DNA of 64,000 bases from Candidatus Uhrbacteria bacterium RIFCSPLOWO2_01_FULL_47_17 (GCA_001791305.1 MGEI01000005.1:146698-210697); one strand, 5' to 3'. Counted from the first letter of the stretch, positions 16,451-57,060 are shown. A program made the numbers and translations. Notes: generated by a model from the sequence alone, not told the origin.

Positions 16451-16562
16451 GTCCTGGCGCCGACCTACTCTCGCCCAATCGGACTACCATCGGCCCTACG
16501 ACGCTTAACTTCTGTGTTCGGGATGGAAACAGGTGTGACCATCGTGGAAGAGGCACCAAGAC
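16451..16562 (-). rRNA. rrf: 5S rRNA
   Basis: rc aligns to E. coli 5S (CCGAACACAGAAGTTAAGCGTCGTAGGGCCGATGGTAGT...GAGAGTAGG); helix I pairing cttggtgcc/ggcgccagg. Confidence 0.85.
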
Positions 16563-16868
16563 AATGTAAACTTGCTGTTCTCACGAACAACAATTGAAGA
16601 TCAACAGAACTTATTCTAAACCTAATTTTTTCTGGTACGTGCGTACTCTGTGAACTCTCTTATGCAAGAGAGGTTGTAGAGCTCGACCTATTAGTACTGC
16701 TCGGCTGAACATCTTACGATGCTTACACCTACAGCCTATCAACCTGCTAGTCTCGCAGGGGTCTCAAATGAAGACTTATCTTTGGATCGGCTTCACGCTT
16801 AGATGCTTTCAGCGTTTATCCGAACCGAACGTAGCTACCCAGCGATGCCCTTGGCAGGACAACTGGTG

Positions 16869-16908
<40 letters not shown>

Positions 16909-16944
16909 TGGATTCCATCAATCTTCGACGCCCATGGTAGATAG

Positions 16945-16996
<52 letters not shown>

Positions 16997-17027
16997 TGGC
17001 GAACAGCCAAACCCTTGGGACCTTCTA

Positions 17028-17063
<36 letters not shown>

Positions 17064-17604
17064 GAACCACGCCGTCGCTGTGGACGCTTGGGCGTGACTA
17101 GCCTGTTATCCCCGGAGTAGCTTTTATCCGATGAGCTTCCGCCGTCCTATTTCGTACGGTCGGATCACTAACTTCTGCTTTCGCAACTGCGCGACTTGTA
17201 AGTCTTGCAGTAAAGCTGGCTTCTGCGTTTGCACGTCCAGCGCGATTTCCATCCGCGCCAAGCCAACCTTTGTAAACGCCTCCGTTACATTTTGGGAGGC
17301 ACCCGCCCCAGGTAAACTACCCACCAGATCCTGTCCCTCCCTCCGGTTTCACGGAAGGTGGTTAGACTTTACACAACGCAAGGGTGGTATCTCACTGGTG
17401 CCCGAAGGCTCCCACCTATTCTGAACATGCGGAACATAAAATCAAGACCAAGTTGTAGTAAAGCTTCACGGGGTCTTTTCGTCTTACCACGGGAAGTGAG
17501 CATCTTCACTCACATTGCAATTTCGCCGAGTACATTGTTGAGAGAGTCTCCAAGTCGTTATGCCATTCGTGCAGGACGGAACTTACCCGTCAAGGAATTT
17601 CGCT

Positions 17605-18330
17605 CTTTGTTGTTACGATCCATTGATCGACGTAGTCATTTCTGCCACGTTCTGCATGTCACCATGCAGGTCGGACTCTATCTTCTTCGAAGGTTTCGAA
17701 GTCTGGCGTATAGTCTCTGAGGATTCCAGAAATTTTGATGGAACTTTTCGATTCATCAATTGGATAATCTTTGCAATTTCTTTCTGACCTTGATGATTCT
17801 TGTGCGTTCCTTCCTTCATCATTTGAAGGAGCTGAGCAAAGAGTTCAAAATCATTTTTCTTTGAAGTTTGCAAAGAGTATTTTTGGAAGAACGGAATAAT
17901 CTTCTCTCGAAGATCTTCTTGCGATCTTACACAATACTTTAGCAATGGTTCTCTGTGATTATCATGACGAGTGTTCTGATAAATCTGACCGCATCCGAAA
18001 TACTCACGAATGAGTTCCAGACTTGATCGACTTTTCATACCTTGTGTCACAACAAACTCAGGAAACACCTGCCATCCAAGGCTTGTGGTTTTGTTTCGAA
18101 TCAAACTGACTGAGAAGCAACCCTCTCCGTCAACAAATCCGCAAATCCACCACGCCATTTCTAGTCTTTCCTGCTGATTGTCTCGTTTTTTTATCATACT
18201 ATGGTTATATTTTACCATAGAGTGAACGAGGTGTTCCAGCATATAGCCAAATTTTTCTTTATCTACGTCTGTGAGGCATCACAGTTCGATAATGAGAGGT
18301 CATTCACCTCACTAAGGCAGCTTTTATTTC
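17605..18330 (-). mobile_element. 23S rRNA intron (likely group I) in domain IV, inserted within the conserved CCUAAGGU^AGCGAAAUUCC sequence, carrying a LAGLIDADG homing-endonuclease ORF
   Basis: 23S similarity breaks after ...caaggaatttcgct (17604) and resumes at accttaggacgattatagtt (18331); about 726 nt in between. Confidence 0.7.
17613..18242 (-). CDS. LAGLIDADG homing endonuclease (intron-encoded)
   Basis: WICGFVDGEGCFSVS motif (LAGLIDADG variant), 209 aa, entirely inside the 23S intron. Confidence 0.75.
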   Translation of the reverse strand: MLEHLVHSMVKYNHSMIKKRDNQQERLEMAWWICGFVDGEGCFSVSLIRNKTTSLGWQVFPEFVVTQGMKSRSSLELIREYFGCGQIYQNTRHDNHREPLLKYCVRSQEDLREKIIPFFQKYSLQTSKKNDFELFAQLLQMMKEGTHKNHQGQKEIAKIIQLMNRKVPSKFLESSETIRQTSKPSKKIESDLHGDMQNVAEMTTSINGS

Positions 18331-19182
18331 ACCTTAGGACGATTATAGTTATCGCCGGCGTTCATCCGCGCTTCAGTCGAAAGCTTTGACCCCGAAGGAT
18401 CTAACCCCCTTCCTTAACGTTCGGACACTGGCCAGGCATCAGCCCCTATACTTCACTTTGCAGTTTTGCAGGGACCTGTGTTTTTGGTAAACAGTCGCTT
18501 GGAGTCTTTCGCTGCGGGTCGCCCCCTCACAGGGGCAACCAGGCCTTATCCCGAAGTTACGGCCGTTGTTTTGCCGAGTTCCTAAACAATGTTTCTCTCG
18601 TACGCCTTAGTGCATTACGCACCCACTCACCTGTGTCGGTTTACGGTACGGGTCTCTATCACATTAGCCTTAGCGGCTTTTCTTGGCTCCGTGTTCTTTC
18701 CCCTTGTTTCCTGTTGCCAGAAAACTTGCGATCATATTCGTGCTCTGGATTAAACCAAGCGTGGTGGATTTGCCTGCCACGCGCCTAAATACGCCCAACG
18801 TCATAGCCATAGGACGCGGGAAATTTCACGAAGCGTCCCCGCTTCAGTGTGATAAAAAGTGCAGGAATATTAACCTGCTATGCATCGACTACGCCTTTCA
18901 GCCTCGCCTTAGCACCCGACTAACCCTGGGACGATTTGCGTTGCCCAGGAACCCTTAAGTTTACGGCGGACGGGGTTCTCACCCGTCTTTTTGCTACTCA
19001 TGCCAACATTCTCCCTTCGCATCGCTCCACCATGGGTCACCCCTTTGGCTTCAGCGCAATACGAATGCTCTCCTACCGCTTAACATTTAAAAATGTTAAA
19101 CCCTCAGCTTCGGCACATCATTTAGCCCCGGTACATTTTCGGCGCAGAAAAACTTGACCAGTGAGCTATTACGCTATCTTTA

Positions 19183-19213
<31 letters not shown>

Positions 19214-19792
19214 TTGTTTAAGTCTTTCCACCACCTTTTACACTTAATGATGATTTTGGGGCCTTAGCTTGAGATCTGGGCTGTTTCCCTTTCGACGTAT
19301 GGAGCTTAGCCCCCATCGTCTGACTGCCGGGAACACATGTTGGTATTCGGAGTTTGATTAGAGTCGCTACCCGAAGGCGCAAACTCGATTCAGTGCTCTA
19401 CCCCCAACACATTATTTACCGACGCTAGCCCAAAAGCTATCTCGGAGAGAACCAGCTATTACCGAGTTCGATTGGAATTTCTCCGCTATCCACAACTCAT
19501 CCCCGTGTTTTGCACGGCACGTGGGTTCGGCCCTCCACGAACTGTTACATTCGCTTCAGCCTGGTCATGGATAGGTCACCCGGTTTCGGGTTATGTGCGC
19601 GCCACCAATATTTCGCGGATTAACGCTCGCTTTCACTATGGCTTCGTCCCGGAGGACTTAACCAAGCGACGCACAACACACTCGTTGGCTCATTCTTCAA
19701 TAGGAACGCCATGACCCACTCTCCGCCTTGCGGCTTCGAGGGGCGCTGACTCCTTGTAAGTATACGATTTCAGATACTATTTCATTCCCCTT

Positions 19793-19826
<34 letters not shown>

Positions 19827-21094
19827 GTACACTATCGATCAGAACATGTATTTAGCTTTGCCAGATAGTCCCGGCAGATTCCTACAGGATTTCACGAGTC
19901 CCGTAGTACTCAAGAACAGTAATCATAATGACGTAATATATTTCGCGTACAGGACTTTCACCTTCTATGGTGTGACGTTCCAGTCACTTCCCCTATATAT
20001 TACATGGATTTCATTATCCGTTTTTTGAAGAAAACGACACTACCGTCTTACAACACCTATCTCTCGCAACGACTTCAATCTTTCGCATCCATTCACACAC
20101 AGTCTTGCGACTCCATGCTTACAAACACTTCACGAGAGAGGTTTGAGCTGTTCCCTTTTCGCTCGCCACTACTAAGGGAATCTATTCGTTTCGCGTTTCC
20201 ATACGACGTGCTGTCGGGTAAACCCGACTGGCCGCATGAAAACGTTAAACGAAATTGTTTTTTCTTTTCCTCTGGCTACTGAGATGTTTCACTTCACCAG
20301 GTGCCCTCCTTGCAACTATGTATTGATTGCAAAGTAATGCGGTATGAACCGCATTGGGTTGCCCCATTCGGATATCTTCGGATCAAAGGTTGTTTGCCAC
20401 CTCCCCGAAGCTTTTCGCAGGCTACTACGTCCTTCGTCGGCATGTTCTGTCAAGCCATCCTTCGTATACTCTTATTAATATGCTCTACAACCACTCTTAT
20501 TTAAGAGTGGTTCACTTCTTTGTGGTTTCTCTAATTCTGTTGATCTTCAATTGTAATGTTCGTGCGACCCTTGAAGGGTTTACCGAAATCTGTTTGATTC
20601 AAGGATCTGTTCTGGCCTTGAGGCCAGAGCTGAGCTACGACGCGAGAGTCGGAACTCAGCTCTAGGCACAAGAGACAAAGTGATGGAGTGGTTGAGTGGT
20701 GGAGTGAAGGTACTTGGCTTTTTGTTGAGAAGACACTATAAAACCGCCTTGTGGGCGGTCTTCAAGCAACAAAATTGTTACGATGAAGATCGTCCCTTAT
20801 ATTTGGTTTGCGTTACATGTGAACATATCCCCTTGTTCTCCGTAAGCTCCTTCTCCTCTCCATCCCATCAGCGGACCCATCTTCATGTGGGTCGATCAGC
20901 CAGATTATTCTTGGGACAAAGAAGAAGAAACGTATTCGATTTAAGTGGTGGAAGTTTAACGGAAGCCGAAAAGACTGTCAAGGGAATTTGTCCCAATTGT
21001 TTCCACAGGCATGTTTAACGATTTTATCTTGACAAAACCCCCATTTTCCGCTATGATTGTCTGATCCAAACGTTGGATCAACCAAGGAGGAGAG

Positions 21095-50097: not shown

Positions 50098-51354
50098 CTA
50101 AAAAACAAACAACGCGATCCCTGCTGCAGCCATCACGACCGTGATAAAAATTCCGAGGATGTTTGAGAGTGGCTTGTTTGTATGCGCTCCCATAATCTTT
50201 TTGTTGTTCGAGATACACAAAATAAATACGAGAAGGAGTGGTGCGGCGAGTCCGTTCAAGACGGCGGTGTAATAGAGCATTTGAAATGGTGGAATACCGA
50301 TGAAGCTTACAATGAGTCCAATCAACATGGCAACAATCATGACGCCGTAAAAGCCGCGTGCATCGCGAAATTTTTTCTCAAGTCCTCCGCTCCAACCAAA
50401 TGCTTCGGACACGGCGAAGGATGCGGATCCTGCAAGAATTGGGACAGCGAGCATACCGGTTCCGACAATGCCGAGGGCAAAAAGAAGATAGGCAAAATCT
50501 CCGACAAGTGGACGCAAGGCTTGTGCTGCCTCGGTTGCGGTTTCGATCGTCACAGGACCATTCGCTCCAATAGTGGAGGCAACGGTCACCATAATGAAAA
50601 ACATGATGAGGTTTGAAAACAGCATGCCGATGCCTGTGTCGATCCACAAATCTTTAAAATCCTGCTTGCTGAGTTTTGGTTTTCCGATCCCAAATCCTAA
50701 AATCTTATTGTGTGTGATTTCCTCTTCCACTTCTTCATCTGCCTGCCAAAAAAATAAGTAAGGAGAAATAGTCGTTCCCAAAATCGCGACAAGGTTCATG
50801 ATAGAAACCTTATCGAACACCAACGAGGGGGTGAACGTCGCATGAGCAATCACGCTCCAGTCTTGTTTCACTGCAAACGCCGCAAGGACGTAGGCAAACA
50901 AAGAAAGCGTGAGGTATTTTAAAAACTTTGCGTATGCTGGATATGGAACCAACACCTGAAGCGTGAGCGAGATAACAGTCACAAGAATGAGCCAAAATAC
51001 GAACGGGAGGCCAAAAACCAGATTCATCGCCGATGCCATCGCACCAAGGTCTGCGCCAATGTTCACAATGTTTGCGCCGAGCAATAAAACGAGCGCAATC
51101 GCTAACATTTTTTTCGAATAAAATTTTCGCATCACGCCGGAGAGTCCATTTCCTGTGACGGTTCCAATACGTCCACACATTTCTTGCACAACAAGCATGA
51201 GCGGAAACGTAAAAAACGCAACCCATAAGTGGGAATATCCGAACATCGCTCCTGTTTGTGAATACGTTGCAATCCCAGATGGGTCATCATCCGCAGCACC
51301 AGTAATAAATCCCGGACCAAGACGCTGCCAAATCGATTTCTTTTTTTCTTTCAT
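50098..51354 (-). CDS. mntH: NRAMP-family divalent metal (Mn2+/Fe2+) transporter
   Basis: GPGFITGAADDDPSGIATYSQ hallmark; 11 TM. Confidence 0.85.
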   Translation of the reverse strand: MKEKKKSIWQRLGPGFITGAADDDPSGIATYSQTGAMFGYSHLWVAFFTFPLMLVVQEMCGRIGTVTGNGLSGVMRKFYSKKMLAIALVLLLGANIVNIGADLGAMASAMNLVFGLPFVFWLILVTVISLTLQVLVPYPAYAKFLKYLTLSLFAYVLAAFAVKQDWSVIAHATFTPSLVFDKVSIMNLVAILGTTISPYLFFWQADEEVEEEITHNKILGFGIGKPKLSKQDFKDLWIDTGIGMLFSNLIMFFIMVTVASTIGANGPVTIETATEAAQALRPLVGDFAYLLFALGIVGTGMLAVPILAGSASFAVSEAFGWSGGLEKKFRDARGFYGVMIVAMLIGLIVSFIGIPPFQMLYYTAVLNGLAAPLLLVFILCISNNKKIMGAHTNKPLSNILGIFITVVMAAAGIALFVF

Positions 51355-51404
51355 AACCCACACAGTATAACAAAAAATCCTCACCTATGTGAGGATCTCT
51401 TTTT

Positions 51405-52904
51405 CTAAAATCCCGGAAAGTAATCCGTCTTGATCTGTTTCTTTGGAACACCCATGGACTTTACGAGCTTCACGTAGTTCTCCACCATCATGGGAGGCCC
51501 TGAAAAATAGAATAGGCGTGTGAGATAATCTGGCGCTTCTTTCTCTATAACCTCTCGTGTGAGATACCCGCTCATGCCCGTCCATGTTGGCGACGGTTTT
51601 CCCACAACATAACTCGTGCACACGCCAATTTTGCTACACCATTCGGTAAACTCGTTTTTGTAAGCGAAGTCTGATTCTGTGTTTGCGCAATAAAACAGAT
51701 GGACATCGCGCGTTCCGCCTGTTTTCGCAAGCTCACGGATCATGCTGCGAAATGGCGTCACACCAATGCCTCCCGCGATCCAAACCATTTTTTGTGATGG
51801 ATCTTTTGGCGTGGTGAATTCGCCCGCAAGATGAGAAGCTACAAGATCATCGCCTTGTTTCAGTTCGAGCAACTGTTTTTTAAATGCGCTTGCATGCGCG
51901 CGATCGAGTCGTACACCAAGATGGACTTCCTCATCGGATGGCGCGGACGCAATCGTAAAGTAACGACGATTTCCGCGGCTGTCTGGCGTTTTAAGCGGAA
52001 GTGTCCACTCAAGGTATTGTCCGGGTTGAAAATGTAATTTTTTGTCGGGAGTAAACGCAAAGTCACACACCTGTTCTGTTTCGCACGTCATGGATTTGAA
52101 TTTCAGACGCACAACTTCACGCGGACTTGTACAAAACGCAAAGATATTTCCAAGAACAAGGGCGAGTTCAGGCGTCATGGTGATAAATCCGAAGTCGAGA
52201 AGCGATGTAAACAAGGCTCCCACAATGACGCCGAACATGATCTGCTCACGCTTTAAGGCCGGAGCGGTGCGTGGCTCTGTGAGCATGAGCATGCCAAAAA
52301 ACACGAGTGGCCAGGAAAGAAAGAGGGATAAAACAGGAATTCCCTTAAGCATTCCAACGGCGATTGCGGCAAGGGCGAACGCCCCGACTTCTTCAAATCT
52401 GCGAATTTTGCGCACGACCATGAGTCCGAGGACAAGAACAAATGGAAGAAGGGTTGGAGTCGCAATCCACCAGAGGACGCTCGTCACACCGAGAAGACCG
52501 AGGATCACAGCACTGATCGCAACCGGGTTAAACATGTGTCGACGTCCAATCGCAAACACATATTTGGATGCTTGTGCAATGATCGCCGCAAGCGCGAGCA
52601 TGCTTATGTGATACAGACTCGAAACGTTTGGATCTAAAACAAAAAACAAGAGCAAGGCGGTGATGTATACGGATTCGAAGTTCACGGCCGCACGCGTGAG
52701 CTTGCCAAACAACATGTTTGAAAAATGAGACGCGACCGTCAAAATCAAAAACGACGCGATCATGTGAACAGGCGAATACGAGATCCATCCAAGAGCCGCA
52801 AAAAGAATCGCAATACCCGCAAGCGCAAAAAGGCCATTCAACATGAGCCGGTACATGGTGATGTTGTTGAGAAAGGCGTCGAGGTGTTTGAGGAGAAAGG
52901 TCAT
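51405..52904 (-). CDS. membrane-bound oxidoreductase: polytopic N-terminal domain (possible ferric-reductase-like haem site, H..13..H) fused to an FNR-like FAD/NAD(P)-binding domain
   Basis: RRYFTIAS (RxYS FAD motif), GGIGVTPFRSM (NAD motif); ATG 52904 leaves a 30-nt gap to apbE. Confidence 0.65.
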   Translation of the reverse strand: MTFLLKHLDAFLNNITMYRLMLNGLFALAGIAILFAALGWISYSPVHMIASFLILTVASHFSNMLFGKLTRAAVNFESVYITALLLFFVLDPNVSSLYHISMLALAAIIAQASKYVFAIGRRHMFNPVAISAVILGLLGVTSVLWWIATPTLLPFVLVLGLMVVRKIRRFEEVGAFALAAIAVGMLKGIPVLSLFLSWPLVFFGMLMLTEPRTAPALKREQIMFGVIVGALFTSLLDFGFITMTPELALVLGNIFAFCTSPREVVRLKFKSMTCETEQVCDFAFTPDKKLHFQPGQYLEWTLPLKTPDSRGNRRYFTIASAPSDEEVHLGVRLDRAHASAFKKQLLELKQGDDLVASHLAGEFTTPKDPSQKMVWIAGGIGVTPFRSMIRELAKTGGTRDVHLFYCANTESDFAYKNEFTEWCSKIGVCTSYVVGKPSPTWTGMSGYLTREVIEKEAPDYLTRLFYFSGPPMMVENYVKLVKSMGVPKKQIKTDYFPGF

Positions 52905-52936
52905 AAAAGTTTGAAATGTCGGAAAGGTCTGAAATG

Positions 52937-53812
52937 TTAGGAGAAAATTTCCGCGTTGAATTTGCTCGATGCTCGCATAGTTAAATCCGCATACACAATC
53001 AAGTACTCGAATGCGAATTCTTTTTCGAGAATCTCGGGCTCGACGAAGAAAAGACATGTTGTGAGTGCGTCTGCGAGAAGCCCAGTCTTTGCAATCACCC
53101 ACACCGCCGCAATGTGACGTGGAGACTCGAGAGAATGCGGATCAAGAATATGGTGGAACTGATTCCACGCGCGGCGATTCCCCGCCGAACCGCAAATGCT
53201 CTCATTTCCAATATTCGCAACACCGATGGCCAATGTTGAGTCACACGGATGTTCAAGCCCAACGCGAATCATCGATCCGCTCGCATCTTTCTGTAGAATA
53301 TCACCGCCCGCGTTGATCGTAAACGATGTGATCCCTTGATTCTCGAGGAGCCCACCCACAATATCAACGAGGTACCCTTTCCCCGCGGCACCAACGTCGA
53401 TCAGAACGGGTTGTTTAATGGCGAGTCGAGGAAATGCGTACTCAAGCGCGTCTTCCCACTTCGGGGGCGTGCGTAATTGTTTCGTCTCGAGAGAATATGT
53501 TGCATCGTAACCTGCGTCCGATAAAAGATTTCCAATGAGTGGTGTCACAGATCCATTCGTGAGGCGATACAGTTTTTCATAAAGATCAAACAAGGGCTTT
53601 GCATCATCGGGCAATGCATATTCGCCCGTGCGCCTCGACATCTCCGCCACGAGCGAGTCATCTCGAAATCGCGAATAGTGTTTATCGTAAACCGAAATGC
53701 GATCCATCACCAATTTAAAAATATCCGATGTTTGTTCATCGGATATTTTATCGTGTATGTGAATGTTCCAGTGTGTGCCGATGGCATCGAATTCCATATG
53801 GGGAAGCACCAA
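52937..53812 (-). CDS. apbE: FAD:protein FMN transferase (ApbE family); no signal peptide evident
   Basis: GAAGKGYLVD, INAGGD, HHILDP motifs. Confidence 0.8.
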   Translation of the reverse strand: MVLPHMEFDAIGTHWNIHIHDKISDEQTSDIFKLVMDRISVYDKHYSRFRDDSLVAEMSRRTGEYALPDDAKPLFDLYEKLYRLTNGSVTPLIGNLLSDAGYDATYSLETKQLRTPPKWEDALEYAFPRLAIKQPVLIDVGAAGKGYLVDIVGGLLENQGITSFTINAGGDILQKDASGSMIRVGLEHPCDSTLAIGVANIGNESICGSAGNRRAWNQFHHILDPHSLESPRHIAAVWVIAKTGLLADALTTCLFFVEPEILEKEFAFEYLIVYADLTMRASSKFNAEIFS

Positions 53813-53945
53813 GCAACAAATTCCAAATCACAAATAAATCTCAATAACCAAAATTTCAAATTCTAAACGTTCCCGTTTGCCATTTTGAATTTAGAATTTA
53901 GTATTTGTTTGTAATTTGTTGCTTGTGATTTGGTGCTTTTTATGA

Positions 53946-54476
53946 TTATGCCTTCGCTTGTACCTTAATTTTTGCGAGTGCGTCCATAAATCCGACGGGT
54001 GTGAGGGAAGATCCAGAAACAACATCTAATTGAATATCATCCAACTTTTTTCCAACAACTTCCGCTTTTATATTTGAAATAAATCGCGCTTGCCAGTTCT
54101 TTGACGTTGGATTATTTGCATTTCCAGAAACCATGACATCGGTAACGACGTCATCTTTGAGCACAACGGTCACGAGTACAGACTCACTTCCACCAGGGGA
54201 AACGTAATTTCCCGTTGCGCTATATGTTCCGTCCTTATACGAACTTTTTTGTGTTGTGGGTGTAGCTGCAGGTGTATTTGGAGTTGGTGTAGGTTGTTCA
54301 GGGACGGGTGCTGGTTGTGTGTTTTCCGATGGGGTTGTTTGTTCTGTAACGGCGACAAGTTCTTCCTGCACCGCCTCTTCACGACGAGACATCATGAACG
54401 CGATGAGTCCACCAAGCAAGACAATGACGATGATAAGTGCGATCCATTTTTGTGTTGGATTTTTTGAATGTTCCAT
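53946..54476 (-). CDS. membrane-anchored FMN-binding-domain protein (NqrC/RnfG/PplA-like flavinylation target)
   Basis: N-terminal TM, Pro/Thr-rich linker, FMN_bind-like C-terminal domain with DVVSGSSLT (SGxS/T flavinylation-type motif). Confidence 0.6.
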   Translation of the reverse strand: MEHSKNPTQKWIALIIVIVLLGGLIAFMMSRREEAVQEELVAVTEQTTPSENTQPAPVPEQPTPTPNTPAATPTTQKSSYKDGTYSATGNYVSPGGSESVLVTVVLKDDVVTDVMVSGNANNPTSKNWQARFISNIKAEVVGKKLDDIQLDVVSGSSLTPVGFMDALAKIKVQAKA

Positions 54477-54543: not shown

Positions 54544-57060
54544 TCAAAACCCAAACTTTCGATAAAACACTCGCTTGCCGATCTCGACCATGATCAGATA
54601 AACCAGAATGATTCCCATGAGAGAAAATAGGATTGGGAGCGGAAGTGGAGAGAAGTGAAGGAATGATCCGATGGGTGTATAGGGAATGGTCCACCCAACC
54701 GCCACACACGCAAACGTACTTATGAGTAACCACTTGCTTGGTCGGCTCTGCAGAAATGGAATCTTACGTGTGCGAATGACGTGGACGACAAGAGCTTGGG
54801 TTGCAAGAGATTCGAGAAACCAACCGGTTTGAAACATGGATTGGTTGAGATGAAAAACAGAGAACAGGAGAAAAAACGTGACGAAATCAAACACGGAACT
54901 TATGAGACCAAACGTAAACATATAGTGCTTCAGCCGTTTCATGTCCCATTTCCGAGGCGTTTTGACCCAATCTGCATCCACGTTATCGGATGAAATCGTC
55001 AATTGGGAAACGTCATAAACGAAGTTGTTGAACAGAATCTGAATGGGGAGCATGGGGAGAAACGGAAGATAAAATACGGCCCCAAGAACGGAAAACATGT
55101 TCCCAAAGTTGGAAGAGAGTCCCATCATGATGTATTTCATGGTGTTACCGAAAGATCTTCGACCCTCCACAACTCCTCGCACAATAGACTCGAGACCTTT
55201 TTGGGTGAGAATGATATCCGCGGATTCTTTTGCCACATCCACCGCGGTATTGACCGAGATACCGACGTCCGCGGTTCGAAGGGAGGGCGCATCATTGATT
55301 CCATCTCCCATGTAGCCGACGACGTGCCCGCCGGATCGGAGAGCCATGATCACACGATTTTTCTCATCCGGCGTGAAACGCGCAAAGATGGTTGTCTCTT
55401 CTGCACGTGCTCGTAGCGCATCATCCGTCATGGTTGAAATGTCTTTGCCAAGCAAAATACCTTTAATCGGAAGTCCGATGTCTGTGCAAATCTTTTTTGT
55501 GACGAGTTCGTTATCGCCTGTAATGATTTTAATTTCAATGCCGTACTGCTCGAGTTCAATCAAAACGTTTTTGACGTCTTTCTTTGCCGGATCAAGAAAC
55601 GAAACAAACCCAAGAAATGTGAGATCGGATTCGTCTTCTTTTGTGTATTGTTGTTTCTTGGGAATATCCAAGCGGATTGCGACCGCAAGGACGCGATACC
55701 CATCGCCGCTCTGCGACTCGTAATACGCAAGGGCTTTCGCGGCCGCCTCGCGTGTGAGTGGGGTCGAGGTATTTCCTTGTTGGTACGACGAGCATTTTGC
55801 GATCACTTCTTCCGGCGCGCCTTTTGTGATCAAGGTTAAACCTTGTGGCCCCAAAACGGCCACACTCATAAGCTTGCGCACAAAATCAAATGGAATCTCT
55901 TCCACTTTCTCATACGCATCAATCTCTTGTTGATCAAAATCAAGAACAGCTTTGTCGAGCGGATTTTTGACGCCCGTTTGGTGGAAACTGTTGAGATGTG
56001 TGTAAAGAAGTACGCGATCATCCTTCACACCAAACGCATCCGTAAAATTCACGAGGTGAATTTTATCTTCTGTGAGCGTTCCGGTTTTGTCGGTGCACAG
56101 AACATCCATGCTTCCAAAATTCGGCATGGCGGATAATCGCTTCACAATCACACCATCTTTCGCCATGCGCTCGCTCCCGCGCGCCATGGTGACAGACAAA
56201 ATAACAGGGAGAAGCTCTGGGGTGACACCAACCGCAATCGCAACCGCAAACATGAAGGACTCGAGGATATCGCCGTGCATCAATGCCTGAACGAAAAAAA
56301 TAACCATGACAAGAAACAAGATGATTTTCGAAATAAAAAATCCAAAATGATCGATCCCGATCTCGAAGTCACTCTTTTGGTGCTTTTTTAAAAGCGTCTC
56401 GGCGATTTTTCCAAACTCCGTCTGCTTTCCCGTTGCAAACACAACCGCGCGCGCTGTCCCGCTCACGACAGACGAGCCGAGAAACAAGACGTGACTCGAG
56501 TTGTCGGTCCCAACTCCGCATGGATATTTTTCTTTTGGAAACGATTCTCCGGTGAGCGCAGATTGATTCACGAAAAAATCGTTTGCCTCAAACGCCATCG
56601 CGTCCGCAGGAATCAAATCGCCGGAACTCAAAAACAACACATCGCCAACACACAGTTCAGCGGTCTTTACTTCTTTTTTTTCTCCGGATCGAATAACGGT
56701 TGCGGTCGACGTCACTTTCTCTTTTAATTTCTTTGCGGCGTTTCCCGCACTATGTTCCTCAAAAAAGTCGAGGCATACGCTTGCAAGAATCATGATGATC
56801 ACGATAATCGAATTTGTGACTTGGCCGAAATAAAGCGAGATGACCGTTGCAGCAGACAAAATCAAAATGAGCGGGCTTTTAAAATGCGAGAGAAATTCTA
56901 AAACAATCCCAAGTTCTTTTTTGTCTGAAATCGTGTTTAATCCGTTTTTAAACAAACGACGACGAGCCTCTTCGTCTGATAGTCCATCGATTGACGATTG
57001 CAAATCCGAAAACACCTGTTCCGCAGAACATGCTGAATATGTTTCAAAAAGCTGAGACAT
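54544..57060 (-). CDS. cation-transporting P-type ATPase (P2/P3, Ca2+/Mg2+-type)
   Basis: CTDKTGTLTEDK phosphorylation motif, TGES-like, GDGINDAPSL, 10 TM. Confidence 0.85.
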   Translation of the reverse strand: MSQLFETYSACSAEQVFSDLQSSIDGLSDEEARRRLFKNGLNTISDKKELGIVLEFLSHFKSPLILILSAATVISLYFGQVTNSIIVIIMILASVCLDFFEEHSAGNAAKKLKEKVTSTATVIRSGEKKEVKTAELCVGDVLFLSSGDLIPADAMAFEANDFFVNQSALTGESFPKEKYPCGVGTDNSSHVLFLGSSVVSGTARAVVFATGKQTEFGKIAETLLKKHQKSDFEIGIDHFGFFISKIILFLVMVIFFVQALMHGDILESFMFAVAIAVGVTPELLPVILSVTMARGSERMAKDGVIVKRLSAMPNFGSMDVLCTDKTGTLTEDKIHLVNFTDAFGVKDDRVLLYTHLNSFHQTGVKNPLDKAVLDFDQQEIDAYEKVEEIPFDFVRKLMSVAVLGPQGLTLITKGAPEEVIAKCSSYQQGNTSTPLTREAAAKALAYYESQSGDGYRVLAVAIRLDIPKKQQYTKEDESDLTFLGFVSFLDPAKKDVKNVLIELEQYGIEIKIITGDNELVTKKICTDIGLPIKGILLGKDISTMTDDALRARAEETTIFARFTPDEKNRVIMALRSGGHVVGYMGDGINDAPSLRTADVGISVNTAVDVAKESADIILTQKGLESIVRGVVEGRRSFGNTMKYIMMGLSSNFGNMFSVLGAVFYLPFLPMLPIQILFNNFVYDVSQLTISSDNVDADWVKTPRKWDMKRLKHYMFTFGLISSVFDFVTFFLLFSVFHLNQSMFQTGWFLESLATQALVVHVIRTRKIPFLQSRPSKWLLISTFACVAVGWTIPYTPIGSFLHFSPLPLPILFSLMGIILVYLIMVEIGKRVFYRKFGF

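Follow-up and report, generated by a model that had tools for sequence, protein, structure and literature searches.

A gene trio in a Candidatus Uhrbacteria genome, probably a divergent NQR/RNF-like flavinylation system with an ApbE that lacks a signal peptide

Results

A conserved trio of flavin-transfer genes

The stretch of DNA analyzed here, which we call the window, comprises 64,000 nucleotides (nt) of the Candidatus Uhrbacteria bacterium RIFCSPLOWO2_01_FULL_47_17 assembly (GCA_001791305.1 MGEI01000005.1:146698-210697). Within it, three genes encode an NqrC/RnfG-like protein with a flavin mononucleotide (FMN)-binding domain (FMN_bind), an ApbE-family flavin adenine dinucleotide (FAD):protein FMN transferase, and a membrane protein fused to a ferredoxin-NADP+ reductase-type (FNR) module (Table 1). 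We confirmed that this trio is a real, co-oriented, self-contained three-gene module, and its arrangement is not due to chance, because about 70 of 80 related loci have the three genes in the same order. The coordinates and the three gene assignments of a first-pass annotation of the window hold, with PF02424 for ApbE, PF00175 for the fusion, and, at the level of the family, PF04205 for the FMN_bind protein. Every gene between 49.2 and 58.3 kb lies on the minus strand. We regard the locus as quite likely a divergent (class A) member of the published, flavinylation-associated "NQR/RNF-like systems," which Meheust et al. defined in 2021 as flavinylation clusters with a PF03116-PF00175 fusion (PMC8238504).

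For the comparison, one genome per species was scanned, which gave at least 503 confirmed relatives, and 80 loci were kept. These come from many lineages of Patescibacteria and from Chloroflexota (Ktedonobacteria), Mesorhizobium and Kaistia, Microbacteriaceae and other Actinobacteria, and Spirochaetota. The order FMN_bind-ApbE-fusion spans at least five phyla (Patescibacteria, Chloroflexota, Alphaproteobacteria, Actinobacteria, and Spirochaetota), with ApbE immediately preceding the fusion gene in 69 loci and an FMN_bind gene, nearly always upstream of ApbE, in 71; the exceptions are mostly contig ends. When neighboring open reading frames (ORFs) were clustered across the 80 loci, the trio alone was conserved and no other neighbor was. 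A profile of the membrane domain retrieved at least 616 clusters at 50% identity (E ≤ 1e-30), mostly of proteins of about 500 amino acids (aa).

Table 1. Positions in the window of the trio, its spacers, its flanking transporter genes, and the rRNA features
Feature	Coordinates	Strand	Remarks
NqrC/RnfG-like FMN_bind protein	53946-54476	-	176 aa; ATG exactly at 54476
Spacer between FMN_bind and ApbE genes	53798-53945	-	148 nt; long imperfect hairpin
ApbE-family FAD:protein FMN transferase	52937-53797	-	286 aa; PF02424
Spacer between ApbE and fusion genes	52905-52936	-	32 nt; short direct repeats
Membrane+FNR fusion	51405-52904	-	499 aa; PF00175; stop codon at 51405
NRAMP-family transporter, predicted NRMT (Mg2+/Mn2+) type	50098-51384	-	PF01566; directly downstream of fusion gene
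MgtA-type Mg2+-importing P-type ATPase	54544-57060	-	TIGR01524; other flank of trio
23S rRNA match	16670-20485	-	spans 3816 nt vs 2925-nt model
ORF inside 23S rRNA match	17613-18242	-	209 aa; LAGLIDADG-type motif
5S rRNA	16452-16560		adjoins 23S rRNA

The fusion protein

The fusion protein, which is 100% identical to "hypothetical protein A3C09_02795" of Candidatus Uhrbacteria bacterium RIFCSPHIGHO2_02_FULL_47_44, consists of a 10-helix membrane domain (residues ~1 to 260) followed by the FNR module (~265 to 499). Its C-terminal half matches PF00175 at 62.7 bits against a gathering score of 22, and the closest solved relatives of the FNR part are the FAD/NAD domains of NqrF (7qty/7qu3, ~1e-14 to 1e-22). 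The FNR motifs are complete, comprising RRYFTIAS for FAD, GGIGVTPF for NAD(P)H, and a C-terminal DYFPGF whose Phe aligns with NqrF Phe406.

Searches by sequence, profile, and fold that used the whole fusion protein gave FNR matches only, with no Pfam match for the first 260 residues (E ≤ 0.01), and the membrane domain was modeled and searched alone. The AlphaFold2 models have predicted local distance difference test (pLDDT) values of 89.5 for the full-length fusion and 86.8 for the isolated membrane domain. Compared with solved structures, the membrane-domain model is closest to RnfD (query TM-score [TMq] of 0.69 for 9eri_D, 8rbq_D, and 8ahx_D and 0.65 for 7zc6_D), then to NqrB (TMq 0.54 to 0.62; 7xk3_B, 0.61), and after these to urea transporters, which share the NqrB fold. 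The modeling thus presents the membrane domain as a truncated NqrB/RnfD fold and not as a heme ferric reductase. A ferric-reductase-like role, with which the first-pass annotation had considered the locus compatible, has to be given up for the membrane domain: there is no PF01794 and no FAD_binding_8 match, NAD_binding_6 reaches 16.9 bits (gathering score, 22.2), and the fold is that of RnfD/NqrB. SpNOX structures match the full-length model in its FNR part only.

In true NqrB and RnfD, a Thr on an external loop holds the outer FMN in ester linkage. A profile alignment to A. vinelandii RnfD (8ahx_D) sets the H-x-F-N-P motif against RnfD 121 and the L-T-E-P (TDP) region against RnfD 228 to 327, and it leaves RnfD ~142 to 228 (~85 residues), which we take to be the external loop bearing the flavinylated Thr, without a counterpart in the membrane domain of the fusion. 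No [ST]G[AS][ST] motif occurs anywhere in the fusion protein sequence. At the level of the alignment, then, the external loop with the flavinylated Thr is deleted in the fusion, and the Thr flavinylation site of NqrB is likewise described as not conserved in the NqrB-like subunit of the published system (PMC10979944). Over the ten helices of the model, the predicted cytoplasmic loops hold 11 Lys and Arg residues and the external loops 1. Because of this positive-inside count, the model indicates an N-in/C-in topology in which the FNR module is cytoplasmic and the site of the deletion (residues 138 to 149) faces outward.

Residues 2 to 18 of the fusion (window 52851 to 52901, minus strand) form a cytoplasmic N-terminal helix with the motif D-x-F-L-N-x-I-T-M-Y-R, which is nearly invariant across all phyla. 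To our knowledge, this motif is not found in RnfD or NqrB sequences. The helix may serve to dock the FNR module or ApbE.

The FMN_bind protein

In the FMN_bind protein, a 21-residue hydrophobic anchor follows K5/K10 (predicted signal anchor, residues ~11 to 29), and a Pro/Thr/Gln-rich linker of ~50 aa leads from it to the C-terminal FMN_bind domain. In every FMN_bind partner among the related loci, an N-terminal K/R-rich stretch (mostly MKK) precedes a hydrophobic helix, and the orthologs from Actinobacteria and from a Peribacteria metagenome-assembled genome (MAG) carry lipoboxes (LAGC, VTGC, or MVGC). Judged by these N termini, the FMN_bind proteins carry export signals, with a signal anchor or a lipobox in each. 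PF04205 matches 17 of 21 FMN_bind orthologs (best E, 1.7e-11), and the window protein reaches 107 bits against a hidden Markov model of 71 orthologs; as read from these profiles, the domain assignment is weaker for the window copy and secure at the level of the family.

The flavinylation-type motif that had been noticed in the first-pass annotation is present as D-V-V-S-G-S-S. Of the two findings that the first-pass annotation had named as jointly refuting its reading, the lack of ferric-reductase similarity holds and the loss of this motif does not. The predicted acceptor, Ser157, lies 19 residues from the C terminus, and in all FMN_bind orthologs compared the predicted acceptor is 17 to 21 residues from it.

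ApbE

The window ApbE (PF02424, 126 bits) has the same sequence as P0121 (286 aa); its 120 nearest protein clusters, from independent gene calls, range from 283 to 337 aa. It aligns with solved ApbEs, for example, E. coli 4xgw at 4e-12, and in that alignment the motifs GKGY(139), CGSAG(202), HHILDP(215), and ADALTT(242) are kept. ApbE enzymes have a conserved Ser/His/Asp catalytic center (Ser241/His257/Asp285 in the Vc enzyme; PMC12052999), and by alignment the catalytic motifs corresponding to this triad are intact in the window protein.

Neither a signal peptide nor a lipobox was found on the window ApbE, which begins directly at the first strand of the fold. Such N-terminal sequences are typical, though not a defining feature, of ApbEs with exported substrates. 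At most 5 extra residues could be gained upstream of the ATG, to a TTG at 53812, and a signal peptide would still be impossible. Among related ApbEs, 44 of 58 have fewer than 20 residues ahead of the first conserved strand when the ORF is extended as far as possible, and the upstream stretch of the remaining 14 contains no hydrophobic 12-mer. The absence of a signal peptide, which had been pointed out for the window protein, therefore extends to the ~65 related loci: none of their ApbEs has a recognizable signal peptide, which indicates a trait general to the family. The family thus apparently pairs, consistently, a signal-less ApbE with an FMN_bind substrate that carries an export signal. A second, secreted ApbE or a further FMN_bind gene was found neither in the 64-kb window nor in the flanks of the 80 loci.

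Operon classes

The related loci fall into two classes. In class A, ApbE is ~290 aa long and starts with F-E-A-I-G-T-x-W, and the flavinylation motif is xG-S-S in 15 of 16 loci; the members are the window copy and loci from Uhrbacteria, Saccharibacteria, Peribacteria, and Actinobacteria. In class B, ApbE is ~247 aa long and starts with M-K-x-T-R-x-L-M-G-M-P, and all 45 loci have xG-A-[ST]. A neighbor-joining (NJ) tree of the fusion proteins resolves class B as one clade nested in a class A grade, so the classes reflect inheritance of whole operons and are not independent evidence that enzyme and substrate coevolved. We considered the covariation of ApbE class and motif as proof of enzyme-substrate pairing and rejected it, because the tree reduces it to one inherited event.

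Downstream of class B loci there is often a gene for a histidine kinase (in 21 loci) and one for an OmpR-type response regulator (in 16), a hint that class B modules serve a regulated function related to the envelope. In our numbering, the loci concerned include L003, L006, L020, L041, L043, L046, L048-L051, L053, L059, L062, L065, L067, L073, L078, and others. The Mesorhizobium/Kaistia loci also contain an ORF for a small secreted protein (in L043, 114 aa), which is PepSY-like by eye. Seven loci (L002, L004, L012, L024, L039, L052, and L078) lie on MAG contigs labeled "uncultured Gammaproteobacteria" whose modules and neighbors are Patescibacteria-like. Class A operons on contigs with this label are 45 to 47% identical to the Uhrbacteria protein, and the taxonomic labels may be wrong.

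Spacers, neighboring genes, and other features of the window

The spacer between the FMN_bind and ApbE genes folds into its hairpin with an RNA minimum free energy of -38.1 kcal/mol (z = -4.6), a value that 0 of 200 shuffles reached. It has no counterpart in the relatives; because their FMN_bind and ApbE genes abut or overlap, it looks like a lineage-specific insertion. No second copy of the hairpin core was found within the 64-kb window, and the hairpin is perhaps an attenuator or an element of the repetitive extragenic palindrome (REP) or miniature inverted-repeat transposable element (MITE) kind. A frameshift or fusion that would join FMN_bind to ApbE is ruled out by stop codons in this spacer. 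The repeats in the spacer between the ApbE and fusion genes are TTTCAGACC, TTTCCGACA, and TTTCAAACT, which the longest-ORF frame reads as FQTFPTFQTF. A riboswitch scan with Rfam gave no match of any kind near the locus, and promoter and terminator consensus sites around it showed no excess over shuffles.

The NRAMP-family neighbor (PF01566, 267 bits) has as its closest solved relative the Mg2+ transporter EleNRMT (7qia, 5.4e-52), with MntH structures at ~1e-15, and its ion-site residues read D-P-S-G and T-T-I-S (Ser in the A/T place). The signature of the NRAMP-related magnesium transporters (NRMTs) is DxxG in helix 1 and TxxA/T in helix 6, versus DxxN and A/CxxM (PMC8806188), and from these residues the neighbor is predicted to be of the NRMT (Mg2+/Mn2+) type and not an MntH-type Mn/Fe importer. 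The first-pass annotation had the position of this gene right, directly downstream of the trio, and its type wrong, since the protein is NRMT-like (7qia; DPSG/TTIS). An NRAMP gene adjoins the trio in 2 of the 80 related loci, L001 (the closest relative) and L006. MgtA, on the other flank (TIGR01524, 873 bits; cut-off, 610.75), directly adjoins the trio only in L001, and four other loci have MgtA-like ORFs at distances of kilobases. The trio thus stands between two predicted Mg2+ importers, and this arrangement is kept, together with the upstream HI0933-like flavoprotein, in Uhrbacteria L001. The NRAMP and MgtA genes are probably incidental and not part of the module. We rejected the NRAMP protein as a functional partner in general, given that few loci have it next to the trio and that the gene is NRMT-type.

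Elsewhere in the window, the 23S rRNA match is longer than its model and contains an ORF with a LAGLIDADG-type motif (WWICGFVDGEGCF; Table 1). Introns with homing endonucleases are common in the rRNA genes of the candidate phyla radiation (CPR), and the insert is most likely such an intron. No 16S rRNA was detected in the 64-kb window.

Discussion

The features of the window trio agree in large part with the published description of NQR/RNF-like systems. The cluster rule of Meheust et al. calls for ApbE and/or FMN_bind within five genes, with at least one protein having a signal peptide or lipidation site (PMC8238504); in the window, ApbE and FMN_bind are adjacent, and the FMN_bind protein has a predicted N-terminal anchor. 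The fusion carries PF00175 (NqrF-like) at its C terminus. In its N-terminal part, the window copy falls below the Pfam threshold for PF03116, a family that 15 of 17 relatives match (best E, 3.7e-11) and that many fusion homologs carry, and the structural model fits RnfD/NqrB only. The Thr site of NqrB, whose lack of conservation was noted by Huang et al. in 2024, is absent. Like the published system, the trio comprises three genes, with a fusion of an NqrB/RnfD-like membrane domain and an NqrF-like PF00175 module, a separate NqrC/RnfG-like subunit, and an adjacent ApbE, and the lineages (CPR, Actinobacteria, and Chloroflexota) are the same. The difference is one of class, as the window copy belongs to class A (ApbE of ~290 aa, xG-S-S), whereas the Ktedonobacter-type complex that has been modeled belongs to class B (~247 aa, SGAT). 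In the AlphaFold-multimer model of the latter, the covalent flavin of the NqrC/RnfG-like subunit docks at the flavin pocket of the NqrB/RnfD-like subunit (PMC10979944). Because its PF03116 score is below the gathering threshold, the window copy is probably not counted by the published definition. The system has been reported mainly from Actinobacteria and CPR (PMC8238504, PMC10979944), and the trio is therefore not unexpected in this Uhrbacteria genome, contrary to what the first-pass annotation had supposed.

Several points weigh against this assignment and its functional reading. Two domains of the window copy score below their Pfam gathering scores, PF03116 at 18.7 bits (E = 0.0012; gathering score, 27.7) in the isolated membrane domain and PF04205 at 19.4 bits (gathering score, 22) in the FMN_bind protein. 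The motif D-V-V-S-G-S-S departs from the canonical D-x-x-[ST]-G-A-[ST] in having Ser for Ala and, as the acceptor, another Ser. Flavinylation of Ser by ApbE is documented (PMC12052999), and the available text of the literature on ApbE acceptor motifs makes no mention of an Ala-to-Ser change at motif position 6. The ApbE has no export signal while its presumed substrate is exported, which leaves the flavinylation step without a recognized route. No acceptor or partner reductase is encoded near the trio, and the available text of PMC8238504 and PMC10979944 reports no experiments on members of the NQR/RNF-like system.

The first-pass annotation saw in the trio a minimal flavinylated transmembrane conduit related to Nqr/Rnf, and this idea fits the published NQR/RNF-like model. 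We propose that the FNR module, in the cytoplasm, would oxidize NAD(P)H and reduce its own FAD. By analogy with NqrB/RnfD, the electrons would then cross the membrane domain via a presumed noncovalent flavin at the riboflavin position and reach a covalent FMN at the outer face, held by the membrane-anchored FMN_bind protein in place of the FMN of the deleted loop. ApbE would attach this FMN at Ser157 of VSGSS, and the tethered flavodomain would pass the electrons to an extracytoplasmic acceptor encoded outside the cluster. We infer in this scheme the bound cofactors, the direction of the electrons, the identity of the acceptor, and the place and time of ApbE action.

A specific form of such a conduit, which does not contradict it, would be redox-balancing extracellular electron transfer (EET), with NAD(P)+ regenerated by dumping electrons on flavins, humics, metals, O2, or a host surface. 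We put this forward tentatively; for a CPR cell, we find redox balancing or extracellular reduction more plausible than the other functions considered. The combination of a cytoplasmic NAD(P)H-oxidizing part with an exported flavodomain, the absence of any quinone-dependent component from the cluster, and the abundance of the module in Patescibacteria are consistent with it, and the ~50-residue linker would let the flavodomain swing off the membrane. However, the module is also present in Actinobacteria and Alphaproteobacteria that are aerobic and possess respiratory chains, no acceptor is known, and the two-component neighbors of class B hint at a regulated envelope role and not at bulk metabolism. 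The outcome would be analogous to that of flavin-based EET in Listeria (Ndh2, EetA/B, DmkA/B, PplA, and FmnB), with which the window cluster would share an NAD(P)H donor and an exported, ApbE-flavinylated FMN_bind carrier as the outermost component. The window cluster differs in lacking Ndh2, a quinone, and EetAB, and its membrane step would be NqrB-like. Listeria secretes FmnB as a lipoprotein and provides it with FAD through an energy-coupling factor (ECF) exporter (PMC9973259), whereas the window ApbE has no export signal and the cluster has no FAD exporter.

It is unlikely that the trio serves reductive metal assimilation, as a ferric (or Mn(III/IV)) reductase feeding the adjacent NRAMP importer. 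Exposed flavins are able to reduce Fe(III) chelates, and an NRAMP-family gene follows the fusion gene in the window, L001, and L006. Among published clusters, 6 of 127 contain VIT1 iron transporters (PMC8238504). Nevertheless, the membrane domain has no ferric-reductase or heme fold, and the NRAMP protein is NRMT-type (7qia, 5.4e-52; DxxG/TxxS), without the Met ligand for soft metals. MgtA occupies the other flank, an NRAMP gene adjoins the trio in just 2 of 80 loci, and the conserved neighbors include no metal transporter. For the NRAMP gene, which had been considered compatible with a ferric-reductase-like role, the reading as an iron importer beside a ferric reductase is weak. NOX/FRD and MsrQ-like systems also combine a membrane domain with an FNR-type NAD(P)H module that moves electrons outward; unlike them, the window membrane domain has no PF01794 match and no di-heme fold.

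We consider still less probable a wholly cytoplasmic system, in which ApbE, lacking a signal, would attach FMN to an FMN_bind domain on the cytoplasmic side and all electrons would stay inside the cell. The lack of a signal on ApbE in ~65 loci would suit it, and cytosolic ApbEs are known from the Klebsiella fumarate reductase system and from ApbE-fumarate reductase fusions of trypanosomatids, which likewise have no signal peptide and act on cytosolic substrates (PMC12052999). In contrast to those substrates, the sole candidate substrate in the window cluster is predicted to be exported. FMN_bind orthologs have a K/R n-region and a hydrophobic helix, with lipoboxes in Actinobacteria and Peribacteria, and the linker is Pro/Thr-rich. 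The pocket left by the deleted NqrB loop would face outward by the positive-inside count, and in the published multimer model the outer face is where the FMN_bind domain docks (PMC10979944).

With Na+-NQR and RNF, the window module shares the NqrB/RnfD fold, an FNR module closest to that of NqrF, and an NqrC/RnfG-like FMN_bind protein with ApbE-type flavinylation. It differs in that the fusion has no covalent-FMN loop and carries its NqrF-like module directly, without a 2Fe-2S ferredoxin domain, and electron flow would presumably be one-way outward and not semicircular. General scans found no NqrA/D/E, RnfA/B/C/E, or Fe-S centers in the cluster. NqrD/E, RnfA/E, and Fe-S subunits are likewise absent from the two genes scanned on each side of the trio (encoding MgtA, an HI0933-like flavoprotein, the NRAMP protein, an O-antigen-ligase-like protein, and an unassigned ORF), with small ORFs between them not scanned. 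Across the 80 loci, no conserved neighbor was NqrD/E-, RnfA/E-, or Fe-S-like, without a dedicated RnfA/E or RnfC/B Pfam search, and the clustered neighborhoods held no other ORF in which an NqrB/RnfD-like membrane domain could be detected. An ion-pumping, energy-conserving mini-NQR/RNF, which the homology of the subunits to NqrB/RnfD, NqrC/RnfG, and NqrF might suggest, is most improbable, because the NqrD/E or RnfA/E pathway is not in the cluster, and the published view keeps only one of the two transmembrane electron paths in NQR/RNF-like systems (PMC8238504).

Within an NQR/RNF-like conduit of the kind we favor, one thing only goes beyond the literature found, namely, that a signal-less ApbE is paired with an exported substrate. 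The available text of Meheust et al. 2021, Huang et al. 2024, and a 2025 ApbE review contains no discussion of the missing signal peptide, and on signal-less ApbEs of this kind, or on ApbE in CPR, we found nothing beyond two papers from the Light laboratory and that review. It is conceivable, at a probability well short of even, that the FMN_bind protein receives its FMN in the cytoplasm and is then translocated with the FMN attached. Flavinylation before translocation is chemically plausible, because ApbE can modify an unstructured 7-residue tag (PMC12052999) and the predicted acceptor lies so close to the C terminus. Alternatively, a second, secreted ApbE may be encoded elsewhere in the genomes, or ApbE may be exported by an unrecognized route. 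Export of the FMN_bind protein by the twin-arginine translocation (Tat) pathway was considered as a way out and rejected; RR motifs occur in only a few orthologs (L044, L067, L079, and L080), and most orthologs start with MKK.

The window copy adds little to the published description of the NQR/RNF-like system, and it shows that surveys based on Pfam thresholds undercount the family and that metal-transporter neighbors are incidental, here of the Mg2+ type. CPR/Patescibacteria lack respiratory chains, and the module belongs to the small number of candidate routes by which they could move electrons through the membrane. Modification before translocation, if true, would make this the first such ApbE system and would revise the present understanding that ApbE works in the compartment of its substrate. 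FAD export would no longer be needed, an advantage for cells with a minimal genome and no periplasm, and it would become clear how cells without an FAD exporter fit flavin onto their surface proteins.

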